The notes under the pieces were generated by a model that saw only the letters and a program-made list of their open reading frames with translations, did no database searches and had not been told where the DNA came from. Shown here piece by piece: positions 6,787 through 48,089 of a DNA stretch of 64,000 bases; position 1 is the stretch's first letter, and each line of letters starts with the position of its first letter. The stretch spans positions 1,056,001 through 1,120,000 of the forward strand of contig NZ_CP186926.1 in assembly GCF_049554935.1 (NCBI RefSeq), given 5' to 3'. This DNA is from Methanocaldococcus indicus. Its GTDB lineage: Archaea > AGJL01 > Methanococci > Methanococcales > Methanocaldococcaceae. A program made the translations under genes and the position numbers.

Positions 6787-7277
6787 TTTAAAGGTTTTGA
6801 TATACAAAATTCACATAAAGAATATTTATTAAGTTGCTTATTTTTAACTGGACAGTAATAGATATTTCCTTTTTTTATGATTTTTAAACCTCCAGGAAAT
6901 ATTAAATATTCAGGATGGAAAGGTTTTTTGGCTATAAATCTTAAATATGGACAAATAATCTTAGAAAGTTTAATAAACTTCTCTTCTTCTTTTGTATTGT
7001 ATCTCCTAAAATTTTCAATCCTCTCAATTAATTTTCTATATAGATTTTCATCTATCTCATAATCCTCTATATCTTCTAAATTTAGTCTCTTTAATTCTTT
7101 AAAAGTATCTAAAAAGTATTTGAGCATAGCATTTATGTAGCTCTCCCTATACTTCTCAGGGAGATATTTAGCATCTTTTTCTAAGAAAACCTTTATATCT
7201 ATAATATCATATATTCCAAAATCTTTTGCCTCTTCTTTCAACTTTTTTAATAACTCCTTAGCTTTCACAACAACCAC
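6783..7277 (-). CDS. UPF0305/DUF2115 family protein
   Basis: PFHP...FPGG...YYCPVK...LCEFC motif. Confidence 0.75.
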   Translation of the reverse strand: MVVVKAKELLKKLKEEAKDFGIYDIIDIKVFLEKDAKYLPEKYRESYINAMLKYFLDTFKELKRLNLEDIEDYEIDENLYRKLIERIENFRRYNTKEEEKFIKLSKIICPYLRFIAKKPFHPEYLIFPGGLKIIKKGNIYYCPVKNKQLNKYSLCEFCISKPLN

Positions 7278-7831
7278 TCAATCATAAAGCATAATGCTGA
7301 AACTAACAAAGCCCCAACAACTAATTTTAGTCCAGATATTATAATGTTCTCATGAGATATTCTTCCAATATATATTCCTAATATAAACAACAACAATATA
7401 GTTATTAATATAGATATGTATAATGCTAATGTTATTTTAAATACAAAGAATGGTATTATTGGTAAGACAGAGCCAAAAGTTGTAGATACCCCATCAATAA
7501 TTCCACATACAATACATTCATTTATAGCTTTTTTATATAAAATTGATTTTTTTAAATATCCCTTATTTTTTAATAAACTTTTTTCTTTTTGTATTCTTTC
7601 TCTTTCTAATGATGCTCTTTCAGCTGTTAATGCTCCTAAAATATTTGATAAACCATTAGCTATTCCTCCACCTAAACCAGCAGATATAATGGTTGTTGCA
7701 TCTCCTGAAACACTTGCTCCTATAACTACTCCCAAAACAGATAAAGACCCATCTATTAAGCCTCTAACTATATACCTTACTGTTGATTCATTTTTTAAAA
7801 TATCTTTTATTTTAACCCGTATTCTTATCAC
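7265..7831 (-). CDS. VIT1/CCC1-like membrane protein (TIGR00267 type)
   Basis: RYIVRGLIDGSLSVLGVV, SNILGALTAERA, PIIPF; about 5 TM segments. Confidence 0.8.
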   Translation of the reverse strand: MIRIRVKIKDILKNESTVRYIVRGLIDGSLSVLGVVIGASVSGDATTIISAGLGGGIANGLSNILGALTAERASLERERIQKEKSLLKNKGYLKKSILYKKAINECIVCGIIDGVSTTFGSVLPIIPFFVFKITLALYISILITILLLFILGIYIGRISHENIIISGLKLVVGALLVSALCFMIEWLL

Positions 7832-8425
7832 CTACAATTTTAGTATATCTTTCAAATCATAACCTCTTAAAATTTTCTCTCTAATAACTTTTTCTTTATT
7901 TTTAATTTCAATAACTCTTTTTAATATTTTATCTAAGTCTTCTTTTTTTATTACCACCACTCCATTAATATCTCCTACTATTATATCTCCTGGATAAACT
8001 GTTATATTATCTATTTCAATTGGAATATTTATTTTTCCTCTATCTAATGGTTTTCCAGCTTTTGGATTAACACCTCTTGCAAATACAGGAAAATTTAATT
8101 TTTTTATATCTTCTAAGTCCCTAACATATCCATCTATAACAACTCCTTTCACACCTTTAACTTTACAGTTTAAAGTAGCCAATCCTCCAAAAACAGCCAA
8201 ATTTCCATGAACTTTAACAACTAAAACTTTATTTCTTGCATAAGAAATTGCTTTAACAACAGTTCCCCAATCTTTTTCATCTACTTCAACAGTAACAGCT
8301 TCTCCATACACAACTTTATCAATATCTATTATAGGTTTTAGATTCAAAGTATATGCCCCTGCATCAGATAGGTTTGGAGTAGATATATTTTTAAACATAA
8401 CTATCCACTGAAATATAGATACCAA
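7832..8425 (-). CDS. RraA/HMG aldolase family protein
   Basis: STPNLSDA, AVFGGL, VIDGYVRD, PGDIIVGDINGVV. Confidence 0.88.
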   Translation of the reverse strand: MVSIFQWIVMFKNISTPNLSDAGAYTLNLKPIIDIDKVVYGEAVTVEVDEKDWGTVVKAISYARNKVLVVKVHGNLAVFGGLATLNCKVKGVKGVVIDGYVRDLEDIKKLNFPVFARGVNPKAGKPLDRGKINIPIEIDNITVYPGDIIVGDINGVVVIKKEDLDKILKRVIEIKNKEKVIREKILRGYDLKDILKL

Positions 8426-9048
8426 CTAATTGGCTCTAAAAATCCTGCAATAGAGATGAATATAAATGCTAAAATAAAGAGTAGAAATAACTTATTTTTA
8501 GATAAAGATTTATTTACAACTGGATATATTTTGTTTGCTAACTCTACTCCCAAAACAATAGATATAGCAAAACCTAAGAATTCAAAAGTTCCATGTATTA
8601 ATACATATTTTAAAGCAGTAAATTTCAATTTATATCCAATAATCCCTGTTAAAGGATTTAAAACTGCTATAATAAAGAGAATTGTTAAATATTTCTCATA
8701 TCTTTTTTTATCTTCATTATCTTTTTTAGCTAAGTATGCAAATAATGCAAAAACAAAAATAATAACTAAACATCCAGTAAAATTAGATATTATATATGAT
8801 AAAGCGCAATCTAAATATGGGTTGTTAGTTGCTGATGATACAGTCATTGAAACTACTTCATACTTTGCTGTTCCAACTGTTTTAATTGTATCTAAAGTAA
8901 TTTCAATAGTTTTTTTAGATTTAAATAAATTTGATAAGTAATATATTAATTTTCCTAATGAAAAAGAGAATAAGAAACCTAACCAACACAATATATAAGT
9001 TAAAAAAATTTTTTTATATAATGGAAGATTTAAATATTTTTTAATCAT
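8401..9048 (-). CDS. Multi-pass membrane protein, SpoIIM/DUF95-like
   Basis: HGTFE motif, C-terminal AGFLE, several TM helices. Confidence 0.65.
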   Translation of the reverse strand: MIKKYLNLPLYKKIFLTYILCWLGFLFSFSLGKLIYYLSNLFKSKKTIEITLDTIKTVGTAKYEVVSMTVSSATNNPYLDCALSYIISNFTGCLVIIFVFALFAYLAKKDNEDKKRYEKYLTILFIIAVLNPLTGIIGYKLKFTALKYVLIHGTFEFLGFAISIVLGVELANKIYPVVNKSLSKNKLFLLFILAFIFISIAGFLEPISWYLYFSG

Positions 9049-9477
9049 TTACAACATCCTTATAGGTCTTATAGCCCCACAAGCCATACATTTTAACATG
9101 TGTATTCTACCTTCTTTAATAATCTTAGTATCTGGCTTACCACATTCTCTACAAATGACATACTCTCTTAAGAATGAGTTGATTCTATCTTTTAACAATT
9201 CAGGGCTAATTTTTCTTTGTAAAATTAATCTTCCACCTTCAACTGTTCCAGCACTACCAGTTTCTTTTAATAAATATTTAGCAAAGAAGTTCTCATCTCT
9301 ATTCATTGCTTTAGCAAGTTCTCTGAAATTTCTAATTATAGTTTTATTACCTTCAATAATTACCTCTATTGGAGGTAGCTCAAACCTATCTTTTTCAAAA
9401 ACATAATCAGGAATTTGTTCTCTTGCTCTTTTTAAAAGTGTTTTATAGTCATATAAATCAAGTTCATCAACTTTCAT
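9049..9477 (-). CDS. eif2b: Translation initiation factor aIF2 beta
   Basis: RFELP, GNKTIIRNF, zinc ribbon CRECGKPDT...CMACGA. Confidence 0.96.
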   Translation of the reverse strand: MKVDELDLYDYKTLLKRAREQIPDYVFEKDRFELPPIEVIIEGNKTIIRNFRELAKAMNRDENFFAKYLLKETGSAGTVEGGRLILQRKISPELLKDRINSFLREYVICRECGKPDTKIIKEGRIHMLKCMACGAIRPIRML

Positions 9478-9487
9478 ATCTCTTCAC

Positions 9488-11131: not shown

Positions 11132-11325
11132 AACTATTCACCTTGACAGCAAATATTATGTTTTATTATAATTATTGTATATATATTACTTGTCACATTA
11201 ATATATTACCTTATATTACCTTTAAATTCTACTATGTGAATATAAATTCATATAAGGAGTATAAAAATGTATTGTTTTTTTAATAATTATTCCTCAAATT
11301 TAAAAATATTTTGTTGTGAGATATT

Positions 11326-30522: not shown

Positions 30523-32604
30523 ATGGGACTTTTAGATAAAATAGGAAGTAAAAAAAAATCTGAAAAATTGAGTATTATCAATAAACCATTAGGATTAAAA
30601 GATAGAGAAACCAAGATAGATAGATTTAAAGAAAAAAAGGAAGAAGTAATAATAGATAAATACAATGTCAATGTTGATGAGATAGAATTTGAGGTTATTA
30701 TAAAAAGATGTCATGGGGAAATGTTCTATTTAATTCCTGAAATTGAATATATTGAACAATCATTATCTCATATTTCAAAAGAAAATTTAAATATGTTAAA
30801 AATACAAATTGGAGAACTTGGTTTATTTGAATATGAGCAAATAAAAAATTATGTTATAGAGTTTTTAACAAGATATAATATAAAAGTTCCACATGTGGAA
30901 TCATTAGCAAAATTTATATATCTACAATCTGGAAGATTAGGACTTTTGGAAATTCCTATAAATGATGCTTTTTTAGAGGAAGTTATGGTTAATGGGTATA
31001 GTATTCCAGTTTTTGTTTTTCATAGAAAATTTCAAATGTGTGAATCAAATATTGTTTTAGATAGAAATGAAGTAAATAGAATTATTGAAAGTATCTCTAA
31101 CTTGGTAAATAGGCCTATTGACTCAAGAGTGCCAATGCTTGATGCATTCCTTCCAGATGGTAGTAGAGTTAATGCTACACTCCCAGATATTACATTAAAT
31201 GGAGCTACTCTAACTATAAGAAAATTCTCAAAAACACCATTAACAGTTATTGATTTAATAAAATATAGAACATTATCATTAGATACTGCAGCTTTTCTAT
31301 GGCAAGCAGTTGAGGGTTACTTTGGCTCTAAGCCAGCTAATACATTAATAGCTGGAGGAACAGGTTCAGGAAAAACTACTCTTCTAAATGTTTTATCAAT
31401 GTTTGCAATGTATAATGAAAGAATAATAACAATTGAGGATACACCTGAACTACAAATACCTCATAAGCATGTTATAAGAATGGTCACTCGTCCAGCAAGG
31501 CCTGGAATGCCTGAGTATGAGATTACTATGGATGATTTAATTAAAAATGCTCTAAGAATGAGGCCAGATAGAATATTTGTTGGAGAGGTTAGGGGGGAAG
31601 AGGCTCATTCTTTATTAGTTGCTATGAATACAGGACATGATGGTGCTTTAATTAAAGATGAACTAATATATCTATCAAATAATGAAACTATAAACATTGG
31701 AGAATTTGTAGATGAATTTTTTGAAGAAAATAAATCAAATATAATAAAGGAACACAATGGTTTTGAATGGATTGATATATCTGATGAAAATATCCATATA
31801 GAAAGTTTTAATAAAAACACTTTAAAGATTGAAGATAAATTAATATCAAGAGTTTGGAGAAAGAGATACATTGGAAAGATGTTGAATATAAAAACTGAAA
31901 GTGGTAAAGAAATAACTCTAACTCATGACCATCCTGTTTATATTTTAAAGAATAATATTATATTTGAAGTAAATGCTGAGATAGTAAAGATAGATGATTA
32001 TATAGCCATTCCAAAAGGGTTAGATATTAGTTGGGATAAAGTTGTAAGTGTTAAAGAAATTAATTATAATGGATATATTTATGACTTAACAGTTGAAGAT
32101 AACCATACTTATATAGCTGGGAAATCAGATGGTTTTATTGTCTCAAACTGTTCAGGAACATTACATGCAAATAGTGCAGATGAAGCAATCCTTAGATTGA
32201 CAAGTCCTCCAATGAATGTTCCAAAAATTATGCTAACAGCTTTAGATTTTATTATAAATATACAAAGAATTAGAAGAGGTGGAAAAACTTTAAGGAGAAT
32301 CTTAGGAATTGTTGAGGTTGTTAAAGGAGATAAACAAGATATAGCAAAAACTACACTGTATGAATATGATGGATTAAAAGATACATTAGTTAGAAAAGGA
32401 ATATGTATGTGGGAAGAAGAAGTATGTGAAATAGCTGGAATAAGTAGAGATGAACTACTAAAAGATAGAGAAAGAAGAAAGATAGTTTTAAAATATTTGG
32501 TTGATAAAGGTATAAATGAATTAGAAAAAGTTGGAGAATACATAAAAGAGTATCAAATTGACCCAGACAGTTTGGTTAATAAATTAGCAAATAAAATAAC
32601 TTAA
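30523..32604 (+). CDS. klbA: Type II/IV secretion (pilus assembly, CpaF/KlbA) ATPase containing an intein
   Basis: GGTGSGKTT, IEDTPE, LRMRPDR, GEVRG, MNTGHDG/[intein]/CSGTLHA. Confidence 0.93.
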   Translation: MGLLDKIGSKKKSEKLSIINKPLGLKDRETKIDRFKEKKEEVIIDKYNVNVDEIEFEVIIKRCHGEMFYLIPEIEYIEQSLSHISKENLNMLKIQIGELGLFEYEQIKNYVIEFLTRYNIKVPHVESLAKFIYLQSGRLGLLEIPINDAFLEEVMVNGYSIPVFVFHRKFQMCESNIVLDRNEVNRIIESISNLVNRPIDSRVPMLDAFLPDGSRVNATLPDITLNGATLTIRKFSKTPLTVIDLIKYRTLSLDTAAFLWQAVEGYFGSKPANTLIAGGTGSGKTTLLNVLSMFAMYNERIITIEDTPELQIPHKHVIRMVTRPARPGMPEYEITMDDLIKNALRMRPDRIFVGEVRGEEAHSLLVAMNTGHDGALIKDELIYLSNNETINIGEFVDEFFEENKSNIIKEHNGFEWIDISDENIHIESFNKNTLKIEDKLISRVWRKRYIGKMLNIKTESGKEITLTHDHPVYILKNNIIFEVNAEIVKIDDYIAIPKGLDISWDKVVSVKEINYNGYIYDLTVEDNHTYIAGKSDGFIVSNCSGTLHANSADEAILRLTSPPMNVPKIMLTALDFIINIQRIRRGGKTLRRILGIVEVVKGDKQDIAKTTLYEYDGLKDTLVRKGICMWEEEVCEIAGISRDELLKDRERRKIVLKYLVDKGINELEKVGEYIKEYQIDPDSLVNKLANKIT
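31645..32148 (+). other. KlbA mini-intein, 168 aa, Ala1 start, ends Ser-Asn before Cys+1
   Basis: ALIKDELIY start, block B TLTHDHP, block F YIYDLTV, block G IVSN/C; no endonuclease domain. Confidence 0.93.
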
Positions 32605-41743: not shown

Positions 41744-42958
41744 ATGGTTGAGCTATTATCTCCAGCTAATGATTTAACATGTTTAAAAACAGCTATTAAT
41801 TATGGAGCAGATGCTGTTTATTGTGGATTAAAAGAGTTTAGTATGAGAGCCAATGCTAAAAACTTTACAAGAGATGAGTTAAAAGAAGGAATAAAGTATG
41901 CTCATCTAAATAACAAAAAAGTATATTTATGCTTAAATACAGTAATCTATGAAAATGATTTAAAGAAAGTTGAAGAGATTTTAGATTTTGCAAATTCAGC
42001 TGAGGTAGATGCTGTTATAGTTAGTGATTTAGGGACTATGCAGTTAGCTAAAGAGTTTGGTTTTAGAATTCATGCAAGTGTTCAATGTAATATAACAAAT
42101 TCATTAACAGCTAAGTTCTATTCTAAATTTGCTAAAAGAGTTATATTATCAAGAGAATTGACCTTAAACCAAATAAAAGAAATTAGAAATAATTTAAAAA
42201 AAGATAAAATTGATTTAGAATTGGAAGGATTTGTTCATGGAGCTTTATGTGTTGCTATAAGTGGAAGATGCTTTTTAAGCTCTTATCTCTTTGGAAGACA
42301 TGCAAATTGTGGAGATTGCCTACAACCATGTAGAAGAAGATGGAAATTAATTAATGAGCATTTTGATGGAACCTATGAAGTTGTATGTGAGGGAAAATAT
42401 TTATTATCTCCAAAGGATTTATGTATGATTGAGCACATTCCTAAGTTAATGGAAGTTTTTGATTCTTTTAAAATTGAAGGTAGAGCAAAAAATGTAGATT
42501 ATGTTATGAGAACAACAAAAATTTATAGAGAAGCTATAAATAGTGTTTTAGATGGAACATATTATGAAAAATTAGATTACTTTAAAAAAGAGCTTCAAAA
42601 AATCTATAATAGAGAATATGATACAGGATTTTATTTCAGAGATGTAATTAAAGAGCATGATTTCCAATACAATATTGAAGGTAATGCCTCAAAATATAGA
42701 AAGATAGAGATTGGAAGAGTAGTTAATTTCTACAAAAAAATTAATGTTGCTGAAATTGAACTTTATGGTGATATAAAAGTTGGAGATACTATTTTAATAA
42801 TTGGAAAAACAACTGGATGTATTGAAGAAAAAATAAAAGAAATGCAAATAAATCATAAATTTGTTGATTATGCTAAAAAAGGAGACAGAGTAGGAATTAA
42901 ATTAAATCATTTAGTTAGAGAAGGAGATAGAGTATATTTATTGAAGAAAATTGTTTAA
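41744..42958 (+). CDS. Peptidase U32 family Fe-S protein (possible RNA hydroxylation)
   Basis: GADAVY, HASVQ, FVHGALC..SGRC, CLQPCR, KIEGR. Confidence 0.9.
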   Translation: MVELLSPANDLTCLKTAINYGADAVYCGLKEFSMRANAKNFTRDELKEGIKYAHLNNKKVYLCLNTVIYENDLKKVEEILDFANSAEVDAVIVSDLGTMQLAKEFGFRIHASVQCNITNSLTAKFYSKFAKRVILSRELTLNQIKEIRNNLKKDKIDLELEGFVHGALCVAISGRCFLSSYLFGRHANCGDCLQPCRRRWKLINEHFDGTYEVVCEGKYLLSPKDLCMIEHIPKLMEVFDSFKIEGRAKNVDYVMRTTKIYREAINSVLDGTYYEKLDYFKKELQKIYNREYDTGFYFRDVIKEHDFQYNIEGNASKYRKIEIGRVVNFYKKINVAEIELYGDIKVGDTILIIGKTTGCIEEKIKEMQINHKFVDYAKKGDRVGIKLNHLVREGDRVYLLKKIV

Positions 42959-43114
42959 AGATAAATATACAGTTAGCAATGATGATTTATTTGTTAAAAG
43001 GAGTTATCTTAATTTTTAAACTTATTGATGTAAGTTTAAAACCACAGAGTTTTTTAGTTTAGAATGCTATAAAGAAGATTCTATAGAAAATATCATTTAA
43101 TATTTATTTTACTT

Positions 43115-43150
43115 GTTCATAAAATATGAAATTTTATTCAAAATAGTAAA
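43115..43150 (+). promoter_or_regulatory. 36-bp box copy 1 (contains TTCATA-AAA-TATGAA) immediately upstream of TATA-like TTTATATT before phoA
   Basis: Identical to 46033-46068. Confidence 0.75.
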
Positions 43151-43202
43151 ATTTATATTCCTGATAATAGAAAAATATTATTTGTAAATTATTACATGTG
43201 AG

Positions 43203-44684
43203 GTGATTATTCCCATGAAAAAATTAGTATCCCTATTCTTGATAGTTGGAATATTATTTTCAGTAAGTATCTGTGGGTGTATAACAGAATCATCCCATAT
43301 AAAAGAAACTGAAAAAATTGAAGGCTCTAAATTGACATTATCTAAACCTAAAAATGATAATAAAAAAGTTAAAAATGTTATTTTGATGATAGGAGATGGA
43401 ATGGGAATTACTCAAACATATCTTGCTGAAAGATATAAAGAAGAGATTGAAAATGGACATCTTGTAATATTAACAAACTTTAAGACAAGAGGAACAATAA
43501 CTACTTACTCTTTAAGTTCTGAAGTTACTGATTCAGCCGCAGCTGGAACTGCACTTTTGTCAGGTTATAAAACTAACAACGGAATGATAAATATTCTGCC
43601 TAATGGTTCAATACCAAGAAAGACACTTGGAGAAATTGCAAAAGAAAAAGGAAAGTCTGTAGGTATTGTAACAACAACAAGGGTAACTCATGCTACTCCA
43701 GCATCAGTTTATGCCCATATAAAAGATAGAGAGGAAGAGGATAAAATTGCTGAACAGCTTTTAGAATTTGAGCCAGATGTTGTTCTTGGTGGAGGATTAG
43801 AGTACTTTATACCAAAAGATGAAAAAGGAAGTAAAAGAAAAGACAATAAGAATCTTATTGAAGAATTTAAAAAGAAGGGTTATACTATTGTTTATAATAA
43901 AGAAGAGTTAGAAAAAGTAAATCCAGAAAATACTAAGAAATTATTAGGATTGTTTTCTATGTCTCACATGGCTTATGAGATAGATAGGGAAAATATTCCT
44001 GAATATCAAAATCAACCATCATTGGCTGAAATGACTAAAAAAGCATTAGAAATATTAGATAAAAATCCAAATGGTTTCTTTTTAATGGTTGAAGGTGGAA
44101 GAATAGACCATGCTTGTCATGCTCATGATGCTAAATCAGAGATTATGGATACAATTGCGTTTGATGAAGCTGTTAAAGTAGCTCTTGATTATCAAAAGAA
44201 GCATCCAGATACATTAATTATTGTCACAGCAGACCATGAAACTGGAGGATTAAGTATAGGTAGAGGAACAGGATATTATGCAAATATAACAGCTTTAAAA
44301 CCTATTGATGCAAGTATTGGATTTATGAGCAAAGAAATCTTAAAAAATCCAAATAAAGAGTTTGTTTTAAATCTGATTAAAACCTATTGGCATATTAATT
44401 TAACTGATAAAGAGAAAGAGCTTTTATTTAAATATCCACTAACATCAAAGATAAACGATTCAAACCTTTTAAATAACTATCCAAAAATAAACCATTACGT
44501 ACATTGCTGGGCTGGTTTTGCTCTATCTGAAATTGAGAGTAGAAGAGCAAATATTGGATGGACTTCATTTGCACACACAGCAGTTCCTGTTCCAGTGTAT
44601 GCAAAAGGTCCTGGAGAAGAGATGTTTGAGGGCTTTTACGACAACACAGATATACCAAAGAAGATAGAGCAAATTTGGACATAA
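43203..44684 (+). CDS. phoA: Alkaline phosphatase, lipoprotein (likely start MKKLV)
   Basis: IGDGMG, DSAAAGTAL (catalytic Ser), THATPA, EGGRIDHACH, TADHETGG; lipobox-like ICGC. Confidence 0.95.
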   Translation: MIIPMKKLVSLFLIVGILFSVSICGCITESSHIKETEKIEGSKLTLSKPKNDNKKVKNVILMIGDGMGITQTYLAERYKEEIENGHLVILTNFKTRGTITTYSLSSEVTDSAAAGTALLSGYKTNNGMINILPNGSIPRKTLGEIAKEKGKSVGIVTTTRVTHATPASVYAHIKDREEEDKIAEQLLEFEPDVVLGGGLEYFIPKDEKGSKRKDNKNLIEEFKKKGYTIVYNKEELEKVNPENTKKLLGLFSMSHMAYEIDRENIPEYQNQPSLAEMTKKALEILDKNPNGFFLMVEGGRIDHACHAHDAKSEIMDTIAFDEAVKVALDYQKKHPDTLIIVTADHETGGLSIGRGTGYYANITALKPIDASIGFMSKEILKNPNKEFVLNLIKTYWHINLTDKEKELLFKYPLTSKINDSNLLNNYPKINHYVHCWAGFALSEIESRRANIGWTSFAHTAVPVPVYAKGPGEEMFEGFYDNTDIPKKIEQIWT

Positions 44685-44758
44685 ATACATATTATTTTTT
44701 AATAATCTTTATTTAATCTTTATTTTTATTATTATAATCTTTTAATTTTGGTGGTTAA

Positions 44759-44971
44759 ATGATTAAAGTTTTAAGAGTTGATGCATCAAATTTTAATAAA
44801 AATGTTGGTGATGTTGTAAAAAAAGGAGAAGTTATTGGATATTTAAAAAATCTACCAGTTGTTTCAGATATTAACGGAATAATTGACTGTATATACTTTG
44901 ATGAAGACAATCATGAATTGGAAATTGTTATTTTAAGTAGAAATGGTGAAAATAATGAAGGTAAATTCTAA
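44759..44971 (+). CDS. Small barrel-sandwich-hybrid (biotinyl/lipoyl-like) protein
   Basis: VGDVVKKGEVIG...VVSDINGII; lacks the canonical AMKM/DKA attachment motif. Confidence 0.55.
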   Translation: MIKVLRVDASNFNKNVGDVVKKGEVIGYLKNLPVVSDINGIIDCIYFDEDNHELEIVILSRNGENNEGKF

Positions 44972-46040
44972 AATAAAGCTTGAACTAATCTTTTTAACCT
45001 TAGTTACGATATTTTCAATTTTTATAATTCTTTACTCTCCACTTTATAAAAATACTAATGATTATTATTCAAAAAAAGGAGTAGTGATAAAAACAGAAGA
45101 TAATTTAGATTATAATGGAGTTGTTAAAATTGGTTTTCAAGATGTATGGGTTAAACTTTATGATAGTGGAAAAGTTTTAAAGTTTAGTAATGTTCTAAGA
45201 GGTAATTGGTTATTAGATAATTATTTTGAAAAAGGTGATAATGTTTTAGTTATATATAAAAAAGACACACCTATATATCTTACTTATGATAGGGTTGAGT
45301 ATTTTTTATATTTTATTTTAATGTTTTTAGGGTTAATTTTGATTATTGGGCAGTTTAGAGGTTTTAAAACTGCTATTTCTTTATTATTTACTGTGGTTAT
45401 GATATTCTACATTCTCCTTCCATTGATTATTAATGGATATAGTCCTATAACATTAACAATAACCATTATTGGGATTATAATATTTGTGTGCTTTTTTATC
45501 TTATGTGGATTTAACAAAAAGGTAGTATCTTCTTCACTTGGAACAATACTTGGAATTGTTGTTTCTGGATTGTTAGGTTATATTGGAATAAAGTTAATGA
45601 AACTACCACCTGGTGGATTTTCAGAATTTGTTCAGATGATTTTATTCACAGGATACTATATGGATTTTTATGGAATTTTAATTTCTTCAATCATTTTAGC
45701 ATCTCTTGGAGCTATTATGGATGTTGCCATTGATATATCCTCTGGATTGTATGAGATAAAAAGACATAAACCAGATATATCATTTAAAGAGCTTTTTGAA
45801 AGTGGGATGAATATTGGTAAGGATATAATGGGAACTATGGCAAATACTTTGATTTTAGTATATGTAGGCTCTTTAATAGCTCCTATTTTATATTTTATGA
45901 TTAAAGGAACTCCAATAGACATAATACTTAGCTATAATTTTATTGCATCAGAAATATTGGCAAGTTTATGTGGAAGTATTGGTATTGTATTAACAATTCC
46001 ATTAACTGCACTTATAGCTGCCTATCTATATAGTTCATAA
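44943..46040 (+). CDS. YibE/F family membrane protein
   Basis: LGAIMDVAIDI, SGMNIGKDIMGTMANTLILVYVG, GSIGIVLTIPLT. Confidence 0.9.
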   Translation: MVKIMKVNSKIKLELIFLTLVTIFSIFIILYSPLYKNTNDYYSKKGVVIKTEDNLDYNGVVKIGFQDVWVKLYDSGKVLKFSNVLRGNWLLDNYFEKGDNVLVIYKKDTPIYLTYDRVEYFLYFILMFLGLILIIGQFRGFKTAISLLFTVVMIFYILLPLIINGYSPITLTITIIGIIIFVCFFILCGFNKKVVSSSLGTILGIVVSGLLGYIGIKLMKLPPGGFSEFVQMILFTGYYMDFYGILISSIILASLGAIMDVAIDISSGLYEIKRHKPDISFKELFESGMNIGKDIMGTMANTLILVYVGSLIAPILYFMIKGTPIDIILSYNFIASEILASLCGSIGIVLTIPLTALIAAYLYSS

Positions 46041-46068
46041 AATATGAAATTTTATTCAAAATAGTAAA
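46033..46068 (+). promoter_or_regulatory. 36-bp box copy 2 immediately upstream of TATA-like TTTATATA before pstS
   Basis: Identical to 43115-43150; overlaps the YibE/F stop codon. Confidence 0.78.
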
Positions 46069-46138
46069 TTTTTTATATAAGTTTGAAGTTTATTAACTAA
46101 TGTCAGTCATTCATAAAAAATGACCTTTTGGTGATAGA

Positions 46139-47284
46139 TTGTTAAAAAAGTTCTTAGCAGTTCTATTAGCTTTGGCAATGATAGTTCCAATAATTAGCTT
46201 AGCAGGTTGTGTTGGAGGAGGTAATGAAAAGACAACAACTGTAAATACTAATGAAAAACCTAAAACCATTATTATAAGAACAGCAGGAGCTACATTTCCA
46301 ATGTATCAAATCCAAAAATGGATAGAAGACTATCAAAAAACTCATCCAAATGTTAAAATTGAATATGAAGGAGGAGGTTCAGGATACGGTCAAGAAGCAT
46401 TTTTAAAAGGATTAACTGATATTGGAAGAACAGACCCACCAGTTAAAGAAGATATGTGGAAAAAATTCTTACAAACAGGAGACCAACCTTTACAGTTTCC
46501 TGAAATTGTTGGAGCAGTTGTAGTTACATACAATATCCCAGAGATTGGAAATAAAACATTAAAATTAAGTAGAGATGTTTTAGCAGATATCTTTTTGGGT
46601 AAAATAGAATACTGGGATGATGAAAGAATCAAAAAATTAAACCCAGATATAGCTAATAAACTACCACACAAGAAGATAATAGTTGTTCATAGAAGTGATG
46701 CAAGTGGAACAACAGCCATATTTACAACATATTTAAGTTTAATAAGCAAAGAATGGGCAGAAAAAGTTGGAGCTGGAAAAATTGTTAATTGGCCAGTTGA
46801 TAAAATGGGGAGAGGTGTAGCTGGAAAGGGTAACCCTGGAGTAGTTGCGATAGTAAAATCAACACCATACTCAATAGCTTATACAGAGTTATCATATGCA
46901 ATTAAAAATAATTTACCAGTTGCAGCATTAGAAAATAAAGAAGGAAATTATGTTAAACCAACAGATGAAACTATAAAAGCTGCTGTTTCAGCAGTTAAGG
47001 CAAACATTCCAAATCCAACAGAAGGTTATAAGGAAGATTTAAAACAGATGTTAGATGCTCCTGGAAAAGATTCATATCCAATTGTTGCATTTACACACTT
47101 GTTAGTTTGGGAAAATAAAAATGGAAAGCATTATTCACCAGAAAAAGCTAAGGCTATAAAAGAGTTCTTAACTTGGGTTTTAACAGAAGGACAAAAACCT
47201 GAACATTTAGCTCCTGGATATGTAGGATTACCAAAAGATGTTGCTCAAATAGGATTGAATGCTGTTAATATGATTAAAGAATAA
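46139..47284 (+). CDS. pstS: Phosphate ABC transporter substrate-binding lipoprotein
   Basis: AGATFP, GGGSGYG, HRSDASGTT, YPI; lipobox LAGC. Confidence 0.95.
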   Translation: MLKKFLAVLLALAMIVPIISLAGCVGGGNEKTTTVNTNEKPKTIIIRTAGATFPMYQIQKWIEDYQKTHPNVKIEYEGGGSGYGQEAFLKGLTDIGRTDPPVKEDMWKKFLQTGDQPLQFPEIVGAVVVTYNIPEIGNKTLKLSRDVLADIFLGKIEYWDDERIKKLNPDIANKLPHKKIIVVHRSDASGTTAIFTTYLSLISKEWAEKVGAGKIVNWPVDKMGRGVAGKGNPGVVAIVKSTPYSIAYTELSYAIKNNLPVAALENKEGNYVKPTDETIKAAVSAVKANIPNPTEGYKEDLKQMLDAPGKDSYPIVAFTHLLVWENKNGKHYSPEKAKAIKEFLTWVLTEGQKPEHLAPGYVGLPKDVAQIGLNAVNMIKE

Positions 47285-47309
47285 TTTCTTTCTTTTTTTA
47301 CCTTTTTTG

Positions 47310-48012
47310 GAGAGTGTCAAGTTAAGCTTTTATTAATATATCGATAAAAAATAGTAAAATATGAAGCTCACGATAGAAGTCTTAAAGGAGAGAATCGAAG
47401 AGGAGAAGATTTTTAAAAGGAATAAGAAGTCGATAGAAGTTAAAATCTTAGCTGGGATTTTGTATTACCTTGGACTATCGTTGAGGAAAGTAAGTTTGTT
47501 TCTTTCCCAATTCGAAAGTATAAGCCATGAGTCGGTTAGGACTTATTATCACAAGATTAAAGAGGTTTTAAACGAACCTGAAAGAAAGGAAAGATACGCA
47601 ATTGCAATCGATGAGACCAAACTAAAGATTGGAAATGAAGTTATTTACGTATGGTCTGCTATTGATGTTGAATCGAAAGAGTGCTTGGGAGTTTATGTTT
47701 CTGAAACAAGAAACTACCTCGATACTATATTATTCGTTAAGAGCATATTAAAATTTTGCTCTAATAAGCCGAAGATTTTGGTCGATGGTGGAAGATGGTA
47801 TCCGTGGGCATTGCAAAGATTGGGTTTAGAATTTGAAAGAGTCAGATTCGGACTGAGAAATTGTGTAGAAAGCTTTTTCTCACTACTCAAACGAAGAACT
47901 AAAGCATTTTATAATAGGTTTCCTAATAACAGCAAATTCGATACAGTTGTTAGCTGGATTAAAAGTTTCATGATGTTCTACAATTGGTTGAAGTCGTTAA
48001 CTTGACAGTGTC
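47310..48012 (+). mobile_element. IS6-family insertion sequence, 703 bp (ISAMJ1/ISMja-like)
   Basis: 16-bp TIRs GAGAGTGTCAAGTTAA / TTAACTTGACAGTGTC (14/16); flanking direct repeat CCTTTTTTG at 47301-47309 and 48013-48021. Confidence 0.92.
47361..48005 (+). CDS. IS6-family DDE transposase
   Basis: [38 protein letters not shown]. Confidence 0.93.
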
Positions 48013-48089
48013 CCTTTTTTGAATAAAAATTTTTATATAACATTCTAAGATTTTATTATATATACTAAACTCTTTTTTAGGTTTTTATT

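Follow-up and report, generated by a model that had tools for sequence, protein, structure and literature searches.

Phosphate-starvation regulons in bacteria are defined by a common cis-element, the Pho box, which precedes both pstS and phoA and is bound by PhoB or PhoP. Bacterial Pho boxes are direct repeats with a periodicity of ~11 bp that lie at the -35 position of sigma-70 promoters and are recognized by a response regulator of the OmpR family. Phosphate sensing in archaea without PhoB/PhoR is poorly understood, and there is no named regulator for methanogens. In the abstract of Akinyemi et al. 2021 (ACS Synth Biol 10:3028), a conserved AT-rich region, the B recognition element (BRE), and the TATA box are said to suffice together for phosphate-dependent regulation of pst in Methanococcus maripaludis. 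The pst genes show the strongest induction under phosphate limitation in this organism, according to a passage of PMC2723118, with phoU paralogues, the Na+/Pi symporter, the second PhoU-linked ABC system, and phoA likewise among the genes raised, and passages of PMC9584954, PMC9081873, and PMC11373211 describe its pst promoter (Ppst) as a phosphate-limitation-activated expression tool in current use. According to a passage of PMC6560208, experiments revealed pho boxes that are bound by "PhoU regulators" in the two pst promoters of Halobacterium salinarum, and these boxes are essential for up-regulation in phosphate starvation. Here we examine a 36-nucleotide (nt) box that occurs in front of both phoA, encoding alkaline phosphatase, and pstS, encoding the phosphate-binding protein, in a stretch of 64,000 nt from Methanocaldococcus indicus (contig NZ_CP186926.1, positions 1,056,001 to 1,120,000), referred to below as the window. 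The box contains a perfect 15-bp palindrome and a second, proximal element, and its distribution indicates that it is very probably a conserved cis-regulatory element of phosphate-acquisition genes.

The box resembles each of these systems in part. Like the bacterial Pho box, it is shared by pstS and phoA; unlike the bacterial Pho box, it is an inverted repeat with a 6-3-6 arrangement located upstream of an archaeal BRE/TATA, and no PhoB/PhoR pair was seen among the window ORFs scanned. With Ppst it has in common the order of archaea and the gene (pstS, or the pst operon), and Ppst is active under phosphate limitation (passages of PMC9584954, PMC9081873, and PMC11373211). It differs from Ppst in that a palindrome and a proximal element can be delineated, in that these occur across Methanocaldococcus- and Methanothermococcus-type genomes, and in its presence at phoA, the comparison being with Ppst as described. 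If the AT-rich region of Akinyemi et al. is the same as the box module, the pstS part of our findings is already known in substance. The box would explain, and permit the rational tuning of, the M. maripaludis pst promoter used in protein production.

The pho boxes of H. salinarum pst1 and pst2 (Furtwangler et al. 2010, Mol Microbiol 76:378) are likewise promoter elements of phosphate ABC transporter operons, from a different archaeal class; the likeness is one of description. Comparable in position are the sites of EarA in the fla promoter and of Ptr2 in Methanocaldococcus jannaschii, which are found immediately upstream of BRE/TATA and help to recruit TFB or TBP (a passage of PMC5512572). 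The palindrome of the box is likewise placed as in archaeal upstream activating sites of the Ptr2, EarA, and TFB-RF1 type, beginning 36 nt (copy 1) or 38 nt (copy 2) before the start of the TATA box in the window. The EarA system has four 6-bp sites and makes up for a BRE that is weak; the box instead has one 15-bp palindrome and a proximal element, beside a TATA box that matches the consensus and a BRE of middling strength. Phosphate regulation of the M. maripaludis pst promoter, pho boxes in Halobacterium, and a shared promoter box of phosphate genes as a kind are known already. We found no description in the literature of an anatomy consisting of a palindrome and a proximal element, of its conservation across Methanocaldococcus- and Methanothermococcus-type genomes, of its absence from Thermococcales and Archaeoglobales, or of an exact copy at phoA, with the proviso that Akinyemi 2021, Hendrickson 2008, and Furtwangler 2010 may contain these.

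An identical box precedes phoA and pstS

A previous sequence-only reading of the window had described an exact 36-bp duplicate in front of phoA and pstS, the palindrome TTCATA-N3-TATGAA inside each copy, and a TATA-like element beside each copy. We searched the 64-kb window for the palindrome and the box and used dinucleotide-preserving shuffles (n = 100) for comparison, and all three observations were confirmed. The 36-mer GTTCATAAAATATGAAATTTTATTCAAAATAGTAAA is present without mismatches at both places, in direct orientation (Table 1). No further copy with three or fewer mismatches was found in the window, and none of the 100 shuffles contained two matches. The repeat extends without gaps over 44 nt at 95% identity and reaches the TATA box; TTTATAT is also common to the two copies if a 2-nt indel is allowed. 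Outside the module, both further upstream and 3' of the TATA boxes, the two copies are unrelated in sequence. The exact palindrome occurs in the window only within the two boxes, and a search allowing up to two mismatches returned 13 sites in total, among them a third, 13/15 copy at 46110-46124. The TATA boxes are TTTATAT at phoA and TTTATATA at pstS; the TATA consensus of M. jannaschii is TWTATATA (a passage of PMC5512572).

The box is conserved upstream of pstS in Methanococcales

The sequence-only reading had named lack of the motif upstream of pstS orthologues as a refutation of its proposal, and this check was run and passed. We scanned genome contigs for PstS and obtained 24 loci, 10 of which are of the Methanococcales type (L001, L003, L004, L006, L008 to L012, and L015). 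L006 begins within pstS, and upstream DNA is available for the remaining nine. In all nine, pstS is preceded by a module consisting of the palindrome TTCAYA-W3-TATGAA, a second TTC..ATAG element, and TTTATATA, with six variable bases separating the palindrome from the TTC-N4-ATAG element. The module is located directly upstream of BRE/TATA in 10 of 10 pstS promoters, counting that of the window. Seven of the nine loci have a perfect palindrome; in L003 and L004, a single position is mismatched. Compared with the 36-mer of the window, the orthologous boxes have three differences in L001, L009, and L015, four in L010 and L012, five in L011, and nine in L008.

An alignment of 11 promoters, in which the phoA box is included, shows which positions do not vary. 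Invariant positions are TTCA-A and TATGAA in the palindrome and T..C, A.AG, and AAA in the second element (T42, C44, A48, A50, G51, and A53 to A55 of the alignment); six of the eight TATA box columns are also invariant, and the remaining two are nearly so. The distance from the start of the palindrome to the start of the TATA box is close to fixed, at 36 nt for phoA in the window and for seven loci, 37 nt for L003 and L004, where 1 nt is inserted within the second element, and 38 nt for pstS in the window. Averaged over all pairs of the 10 pstS promoters, identity reaches 0.77 within the box; it is 0.30 and 0.40 in two segments upstream and 0.35 in the first 40 nt beyond the TATA box.

This conservation is not that of a coding sequence, because the neighboring genes upstream differ between loci: the gene 5' of pstS encodes a YibE/F membrane protein in the window, a PP-loop ATPase in L012 and L009, a Mur-ligase-like protein in L001, a divergently transcribed phosphoenolpyruvate (PEP) synthase in L010, and an unknown open reading frame (ORF) in L015. 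The module is also kept in two loci of 43 to 44% G+C (L003 and L004). In L003, L004, and L008, the center of the palindrome is TTT instead of AAA and the half-sites are unchanged, as would be expected from two-fold symmetric recognition. The motif is thus kept in nine of nine loci, at a near-fixed distance from the TATA box and among unrelated neighbors, which supports the view that the box is a selectively maintained cis-element of Methanococcales pstS promoters. The identity of the genes and, by analogy, the M. maripaludis pst data suggest that the box would respond to phosphate.

A symmetrized position weight matrix (PWM) was built from the 10 pstS sites and used to scan ~224 kb of Methanococcales sequence. 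A PWM score of at least 19 was reached by 12 palindromes, every one of them in an upstream region of pstS or phoA. The matrix should be usable for predicting the regulon in whole genomes of Methanococcales. Weaker matches in L009 (position 1413) and L010 (position 81) fall within coding regions and were taken as chance. One of the 12 strong sites is a second perfect palindrome in L010 (9496-9510), which is found 200 nt upstream of the pstS box; only 17 nt separate it from the earliest start codon that the divergently transcribed PEP synthase gene (minus strand, 7125-9479) could use. At the start of pstC in L009, a palindrome-like word (11243-11257, PWM score 12.6) lies in a conserved stretch that is matched at ~11455-11470 in L010.

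Possible activation or repression from the box

The sequence-only reading had noted a third copy of the palindrome in the pstS leader, inside a GTCATT/AATGAC hairpin. The 13/15 match and its GTCATT/AATGAC flanks are present as described (Table 1). The hairpin was not supported: the fold of the leader has a z score of -0.84, 35 of 200 shuffles were as stable, and the minimum-energy fold does not include the GTCATT/AATGAC pairing. The third copy has a PWM score of 7.6 (21.2 for the main sites), yet only two of the 63,986 window positions score higher. A first-order Markov simulation predicted 2.4 such matches per 64 kb, so a match in one given 60-nt leader is expected at a rate of ~2/1000. A site at position 9973 of L015 (PWM score 7.7) lies 35 nt after the TATA start, compared with 38 nt in the window; a comparable downstream site was found neither in the phoA leader nor in the other eight pstS promoters. 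The third copy is possibly an auxiliary operator of the sub-lineage to which the window and L015 belong.

Binding upstream of the BRE is typical of archaeal activators, and repressors sit on the core promoter or downstream of it (a passage of PMC5512572). The center of the palindrome is ~32.5 bp, or ~three helical turns, from the center of the TATA box (34.5 bp for pstS in the window); with transcription starting at the usual 22 to 27 nt after the TATA box, the palindrome would be centered near -59. Activation under phosphate limitation is favored because the main site is upstream of BRE/TATA, and judging from the sequence, we consider the chances about even that the element acts mainly as an activator site. 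A symmetric protein, dimeric or of higher order and responsive to phosphate, would occupy the palindrome, probably contact the proximal element as well, and from there control the assembly of TBP and TFB. In this sub-lineage, the weak site just beyond the predicted start of pstS may contribute repression or looping.

Several points weigh against this reading. In archaeal promoters that are activated, the BRE or the TATA box tends to be weak. Here, the TATA box matches the consensus perfectly, and in the orthologues the BRE region contains the same GAAAA core as the strong BRE of M. jannaschii quoted in a passage of PMC5512572; in the window this region reads GTAAA, and the CC of that strong BRE is missing from both. 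The conserved stretch reaches from the palindrome to the BRE position without interruption, and in the window and L015 the weak site falls at roughly +5 to +22; both features fit a repressor too. In L001 (14158-14172) and L009 (13875-13889), a near-palindrome with one half-site changed separates pstB from an additional phoU-like gene with a weak match. It lies directly against a TATA-like run whose distance from the start codon is too short for the run to serve as the promoter of that gene. This near-palindrome is possibly an internal control point of the operon, and its position does not fit a simple upstream-activator rule. The comparison across genomes covers pstS promoters only, from the fetched loci, which do not include M. 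jannaschii or M. maripaludis. Finally, the identity of the two window copies exceeds the need of binding and could reflect a recent promoter duplication, which makes the function of the phoA copy putative.

Alternatively, the same Pho box could be a repressor operator, a somewhat unlikely reading. A multimer bound to the palindrome, the BRE-proximal element, and, in this sub-lineage, the site after the transcription start would wrap or loop the core promoter when phosphate is plentiful and leave it under limitation. The unbroken conservation from palindrome to TATA box is consistent with this model, as are the core promoter, which looks intrinsically strong in the orthologues, the weak palindrome-like sites after the TATA box in the window and L015, and the near-palindrome against a TATA-like run in L001 and L009. 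However, the best-conserved and sole perfect site is upstream of the BRE, the usual position of an activator, and the downstream site is weak (7.6 versus 21.2) and absent from phoA and from 8 of the 10 pstS promoters. The wording "activated" for the M. maripaludis pst promoter under limitation in a passage of PMC9081873 does not tell the two mechanisms apart. Of the activator-like operator proposed in the sequence-only reading, the position upstream of BRE/TATA and the conserved cis-element stand, and the activator sign is weakened, as the unbroken conservation, the consensus TATA box, and the weak downstream site fit a repressor just as well.

Probable copying of the promoter module to phoA

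Some states found in both window copies are rare elsewhere. No other promoter of the alignment has their spacer ATTTTA, and their GTAAA recurs in L015 alone. Together with identity at 36 of 36 positions, these shared states go beyond what binding would need and indicate that the module was copied or homogenized within the genome. The 36-bp identity is a mark of copying or homogenization and does not give the width of the binding site, orthologous boxes differing at 3 to 9 of the 36 positions.

The distribution of PhoA is patchy, with close relatives of the window protein confined to a few Methanocaldococcus-type records. The most similar proteins are 81%, 81%, and 77% identical, followed by one of M. 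villosus (71%), an M. indicus protein (64%), and bacterial proteins at ~55% (for example, from Desulfomonile). The same genome seems to contain a second PhoA paralogue, the protein with 64% identity. In the protein collection, the window PhoA was matched at 100% and the window PstS was not. We infer that phoA is an accessory gene that received the promoter module of pstS, which also gives the direction of copying. With the whole module down to the TATA box present at phoA, this gene would be under the same control as pstS, and the exact copy would be a clean case of regulon growth by the copying of a promoter module.

A recent promoter duplication without any phosphate-specific meaning would account for the identity of the two copies as well. 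A generic strong-promoter element, acting through DNA shape, chromatin, or contact with a basal factor, would have been copied from pstS to phoA; identity that includes species-variable positions and continues into the TATA box does point to copying or gene conversion. Yet such an element would be expected at many promoters, and the strong palindromes in ~224 kb are only at pstS and phoA, both of them classic phosphate-acquisition genes. The half-sites, moreover, are kept even where the center is inverted. Since the strong sites are limited to phosphate genes, a generic promoter element is improbable.

A mobile-element end or a recombination scar, such as a miniature inverted-repeat transposable element (MITE) or the terminal repeats of an IS6-family insertion sequence (IS), is a far remoter explanation of the repeat. 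An IS6-family transposase ORF is found 77 nt downstream of pstS, and the 23 nt at 48014-48036 are 83% complementary to part of the box. These 23 nt are, however, the T-rich old 3' flank of pstS, and the element has its own terminal inverted repeats of 17 nt (47309-47325 and 47997-48013, 88% complementary) and a T-rich target duplication of 7 to 8 nt, which are unrelated to the box. In addition, the two box copies are direct rather than inverted, and the box is at the orthologous place in nine other genomes, with no transposase in the annotated pstS surroundings of L012 and L015. We therefore rejected an IS or MITE origin; the IS6 element is a simple insertion in the 3' flank of an already solitary pstS.

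A role of the conserved sequence at the RNA level, be it as a riboswitch, a small RNA, or a structured leader, is just as remote and was rejected: GTCATT and AATGAC are able to pair around the third copy, but the two identical copies are 5' of the TATA boxes and hence not in these transcripts, the leader fold is no better than those of shuffles, and Rfam (42900-46300, E values up to 1) returned nothing relevant, only one sub-threshold chance match inside phoA with 22.7 bits versus a gathering threshold of 50.

Other archaeal orders have different elements

The sequence-only reading had called the box a candidate archaeal Pho box. The element is not common to archaea as a whole: with up to one mismatch allowed, the palindrome is present in none of the 14 pstS loci of the Thermococcales or Archaeoglobales type, which carry different conserved elements. 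As a candidate Pho box, it is best read as specific to Methanococcales.

Thermococcales pstS promoters (L002, L005, L007, L022, L023, and L024) have their own conserved box, ~60 nt before pstS and abutting the TATA box. In L005 it is ACTATATTCTATTGCGACAATCTTTATAT, and TATAG-type words occur further upstream. This box may be an analogous, perhaps distantly related, Pho box. A perfect 10-bp palindrome, TTCTATAGAA, is found at 43079-43088 in M. indicus, 28 nt before the box of phoA. Words of similar sequence, TTCTAT/ATAGAA, occur in the pstS promoters of Thermococcales and Archaeoglobales; the M. indicus palindrome may be due to chance in A+T-rich DNA. In the pst operons of Thermococci, additional phosphate-related genes separate pstS from pstC. 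A short fragment of an alkaline phosphatase occupies this place in L022 (1846-2208), and xylose-isomerase-like TIM-barrel genes are present in L023 (11200-12662), together with a calcineurin-like phosphoesterase, and in L007 (11083-11877).

Search for the regulator

No PhoB/PhoR-type pair was found among the window ORFs scanned with Pfam and NCBIfam, a search confined to the 64 kb, which agrees with the absence reported in the sequence-only reading; none is encoded in the Methanococcales DNA examined, comprising the window and the loci. The Pfam and NCBIfam searches likewise revealed no dedicated transcription factor consistently near pst in the window and the tested ORFs of L001, L009, L010, L012, and L015. 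The sole transcription-factor-like gene in the scanned Methanococcales ORFs is a TrmB-like helix-turn-helix gene in L010.

A different picture was obtained for the Archaeoglobales-type loci. We built a hidden Markov model (HMM) of proteins with an AbrB domain (MazE-type/SpoVT) fused to PhoU from 120 proteins and ran it over stop-to-stop ORFs of at least 50 amino acids in the 24 loci and the window. A gene for such an AbrB-PhoU fusion, a family named "phosphate uptake regulator" in the source records, adjoins pst in eight of eight Archaeoglobales-type loci (L013, L014, and L016 to L021; Table 1). The intergenic regions shared by the divergent AbrB-PhoU genes and pstS contain TATAGA/TCTATA-type repeats. 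The HMM detected no fusion in any of the 10 Methanococcales loci or in the window, although one may exist elsewhere in these genomes, and no relative named from Methanococcales is among the best 120 of 209 matches. AbrB-PhoU was set aside as the Methanococcales factor, the HMM matches being restricted to the eight loci, which is not evidence of absence from these genomes. Within the DNA examined, the Archaeoglobales-type loci have a candidate DNA-binding phosphate regulator and no palindrome, and Methanococcales show the reverse.

A 5-3-5 palindrome with an A/T center is the format of sites bound by the Lrp/AsnC family, to which the M. jannaschii activator Ptr2 belongs; the family is a tentative lead. 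A sharp 15-bp palindrome at a near-fixed place across genera would serve as bait for DNA affinity purification and offers a handle to the phosphate regulator of methanogens. It is conceivable, if rather doubtful, that the palindrome is the operator of a phosphate-sensing factor from a class new to phosphate, neither PhoB nor AbrB-PhoU, which would act as an activator from ~-59 and as a repressor or loop anchor from ~+12. The same doubtful scenario has the Methanococcales regulon growing by copying of the module onto acquired genes such as phoA, and the ATAGAA/TTCTAT-like words of Thermococcales and Archaeoglobales would be diverged versions of an ancient euryarchaeal Pho box.

Genomic context of the box

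The features of the locus and the AbrB-PhoU genes are listed in Table 1. The gene assignments made in the sequence-only reading, PhoA and PstS, were upheld by the family matches given there. The likely start of phoA is the ATG at 43215, 7 bases after the ribosome-binding site GGTGAT (43202-43207). pstS begins with a TTG 3 nt after a GGTGAT, an arrangement that is the same in the orthologues.

TABLE 1 Positions of features in the M. indicus window and of AbrB-PhoU genes in Archaeoglobales-type pst loci
Feature	Sequence	Position	Strand	Remarks
Box copy 1, before phoA	Window	43115..43150	+	Same 36 nt as copy 2; every column alignable with 10 pstS promoters
Palindrome TTCATA-AAA-TATGAA of copy 1, perfect, 15 bp; putative dimer site	Window	43116..43130	.	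PWM score 21.2, the maximum; starts 36 nt before TATA start
Second conserved element TTC-N4-ATAG of copy 1, into BRE position	Window	43137..43146	+	Alignment of 11 promoters
TATA box of phoA, TTTATAT	Window	43152..43158	+	Transcription start predicted ~22 to 27 nt downstream
phoA, alkaline phosphatase, 489 amino acids	Window	43215..44684 (ORF 43203-44684)	+	Pfam PF00245, E value 8.5e-104
YibE/F membrane protein gene	Window	44943-46040		Stop codon (46038-46040) inside box copy 2
Box copy 2, before pstS	Window	46033..46068	+	First 8 nt overlap end and stop codon of YibE/F gene
Palindrome of copy 2, perfect	Window	46034..46048	.	PWM score 21.2
Second conserved element of copy 2	Window	46055..46064	+	Alignment of 11 promoters
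TATA box of pstS, TTTATATA	Window	46072..46079	+	2 nt further from box than at phoA and in nine orthologous promoters
Weak palindrome-like site TTCATAAAAAATGAC, 13/15	Window	46110..46124	.	Predicted initially transcribed region of pstS; flanks GTCATT/AATGAC
pstS, phosphate-binding protein, 381 amino acids	Window	46139..47284	+	TIGR00975, E value 1e-132
IS6-family insertion sequence	Window	47309-48013		Transposase ORF 47361-48005; 24 nt after pstS stop; old flank resumes at 48014
AbrB-PhoU gene, divergent from pstS	L016	8808-9767	-	
AbrB-PhoU gene, divergent from pstS	L017	1095-2048	-	
AbrB-PhoU gene, divergent from pstS	L018	21-977	-	
AbrB-PhoU gene, divergent from pstS	L019	8786-9742	-	
AbrB-PhoU gene, divergent from pstS	L021	8905-9813	-	
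AbrB-PhoU gene, divergent from pstS	L020	1-800	-	
AbrB-PhoU gene, after phoU	L014	14135-15097		3' end of pst cluster
AbrB-PhoU gene, after phoU	L013	9587-9982		3' end of pst cluster

The window has a G+C content of 27.6% and contains ordinary Methanococcales housekeeping genes, and its PstS shows 88% identity to the counterparts in Methanocaldococcus sp. FS406-22 and M. jannaschii. Between phoA and pstS there is, in addition to the YibE/F gene, a 70-amino-acid ORF for which no family match was found. Downstream of pstS, the IS6-family element is followed by a radical-SAM gene, and there is no pstCAB; pstS is therefore monocistronic here. A solitary pstS, without pstC, pstA, pstB, and phoU downstream, is found both in the window and in L015 (10004-11167), a locus of low G+C content. 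The order pstS-pstC-pstA-pstB-phoU is present in L012 according to Pfam annotation and in L001, L009, and L010 according to the layout of ORFs. Long T-rich runs follow pstS in all of the loci examined, which suggests partial termination there. Elsewhere in the window, the gene for a FlaI/VirB11-type secretion ATPase (30523-32604) is split by an intein, whose N- and C-terminal splicing regions were recognized by NCBIfam at residues 377 to 545.

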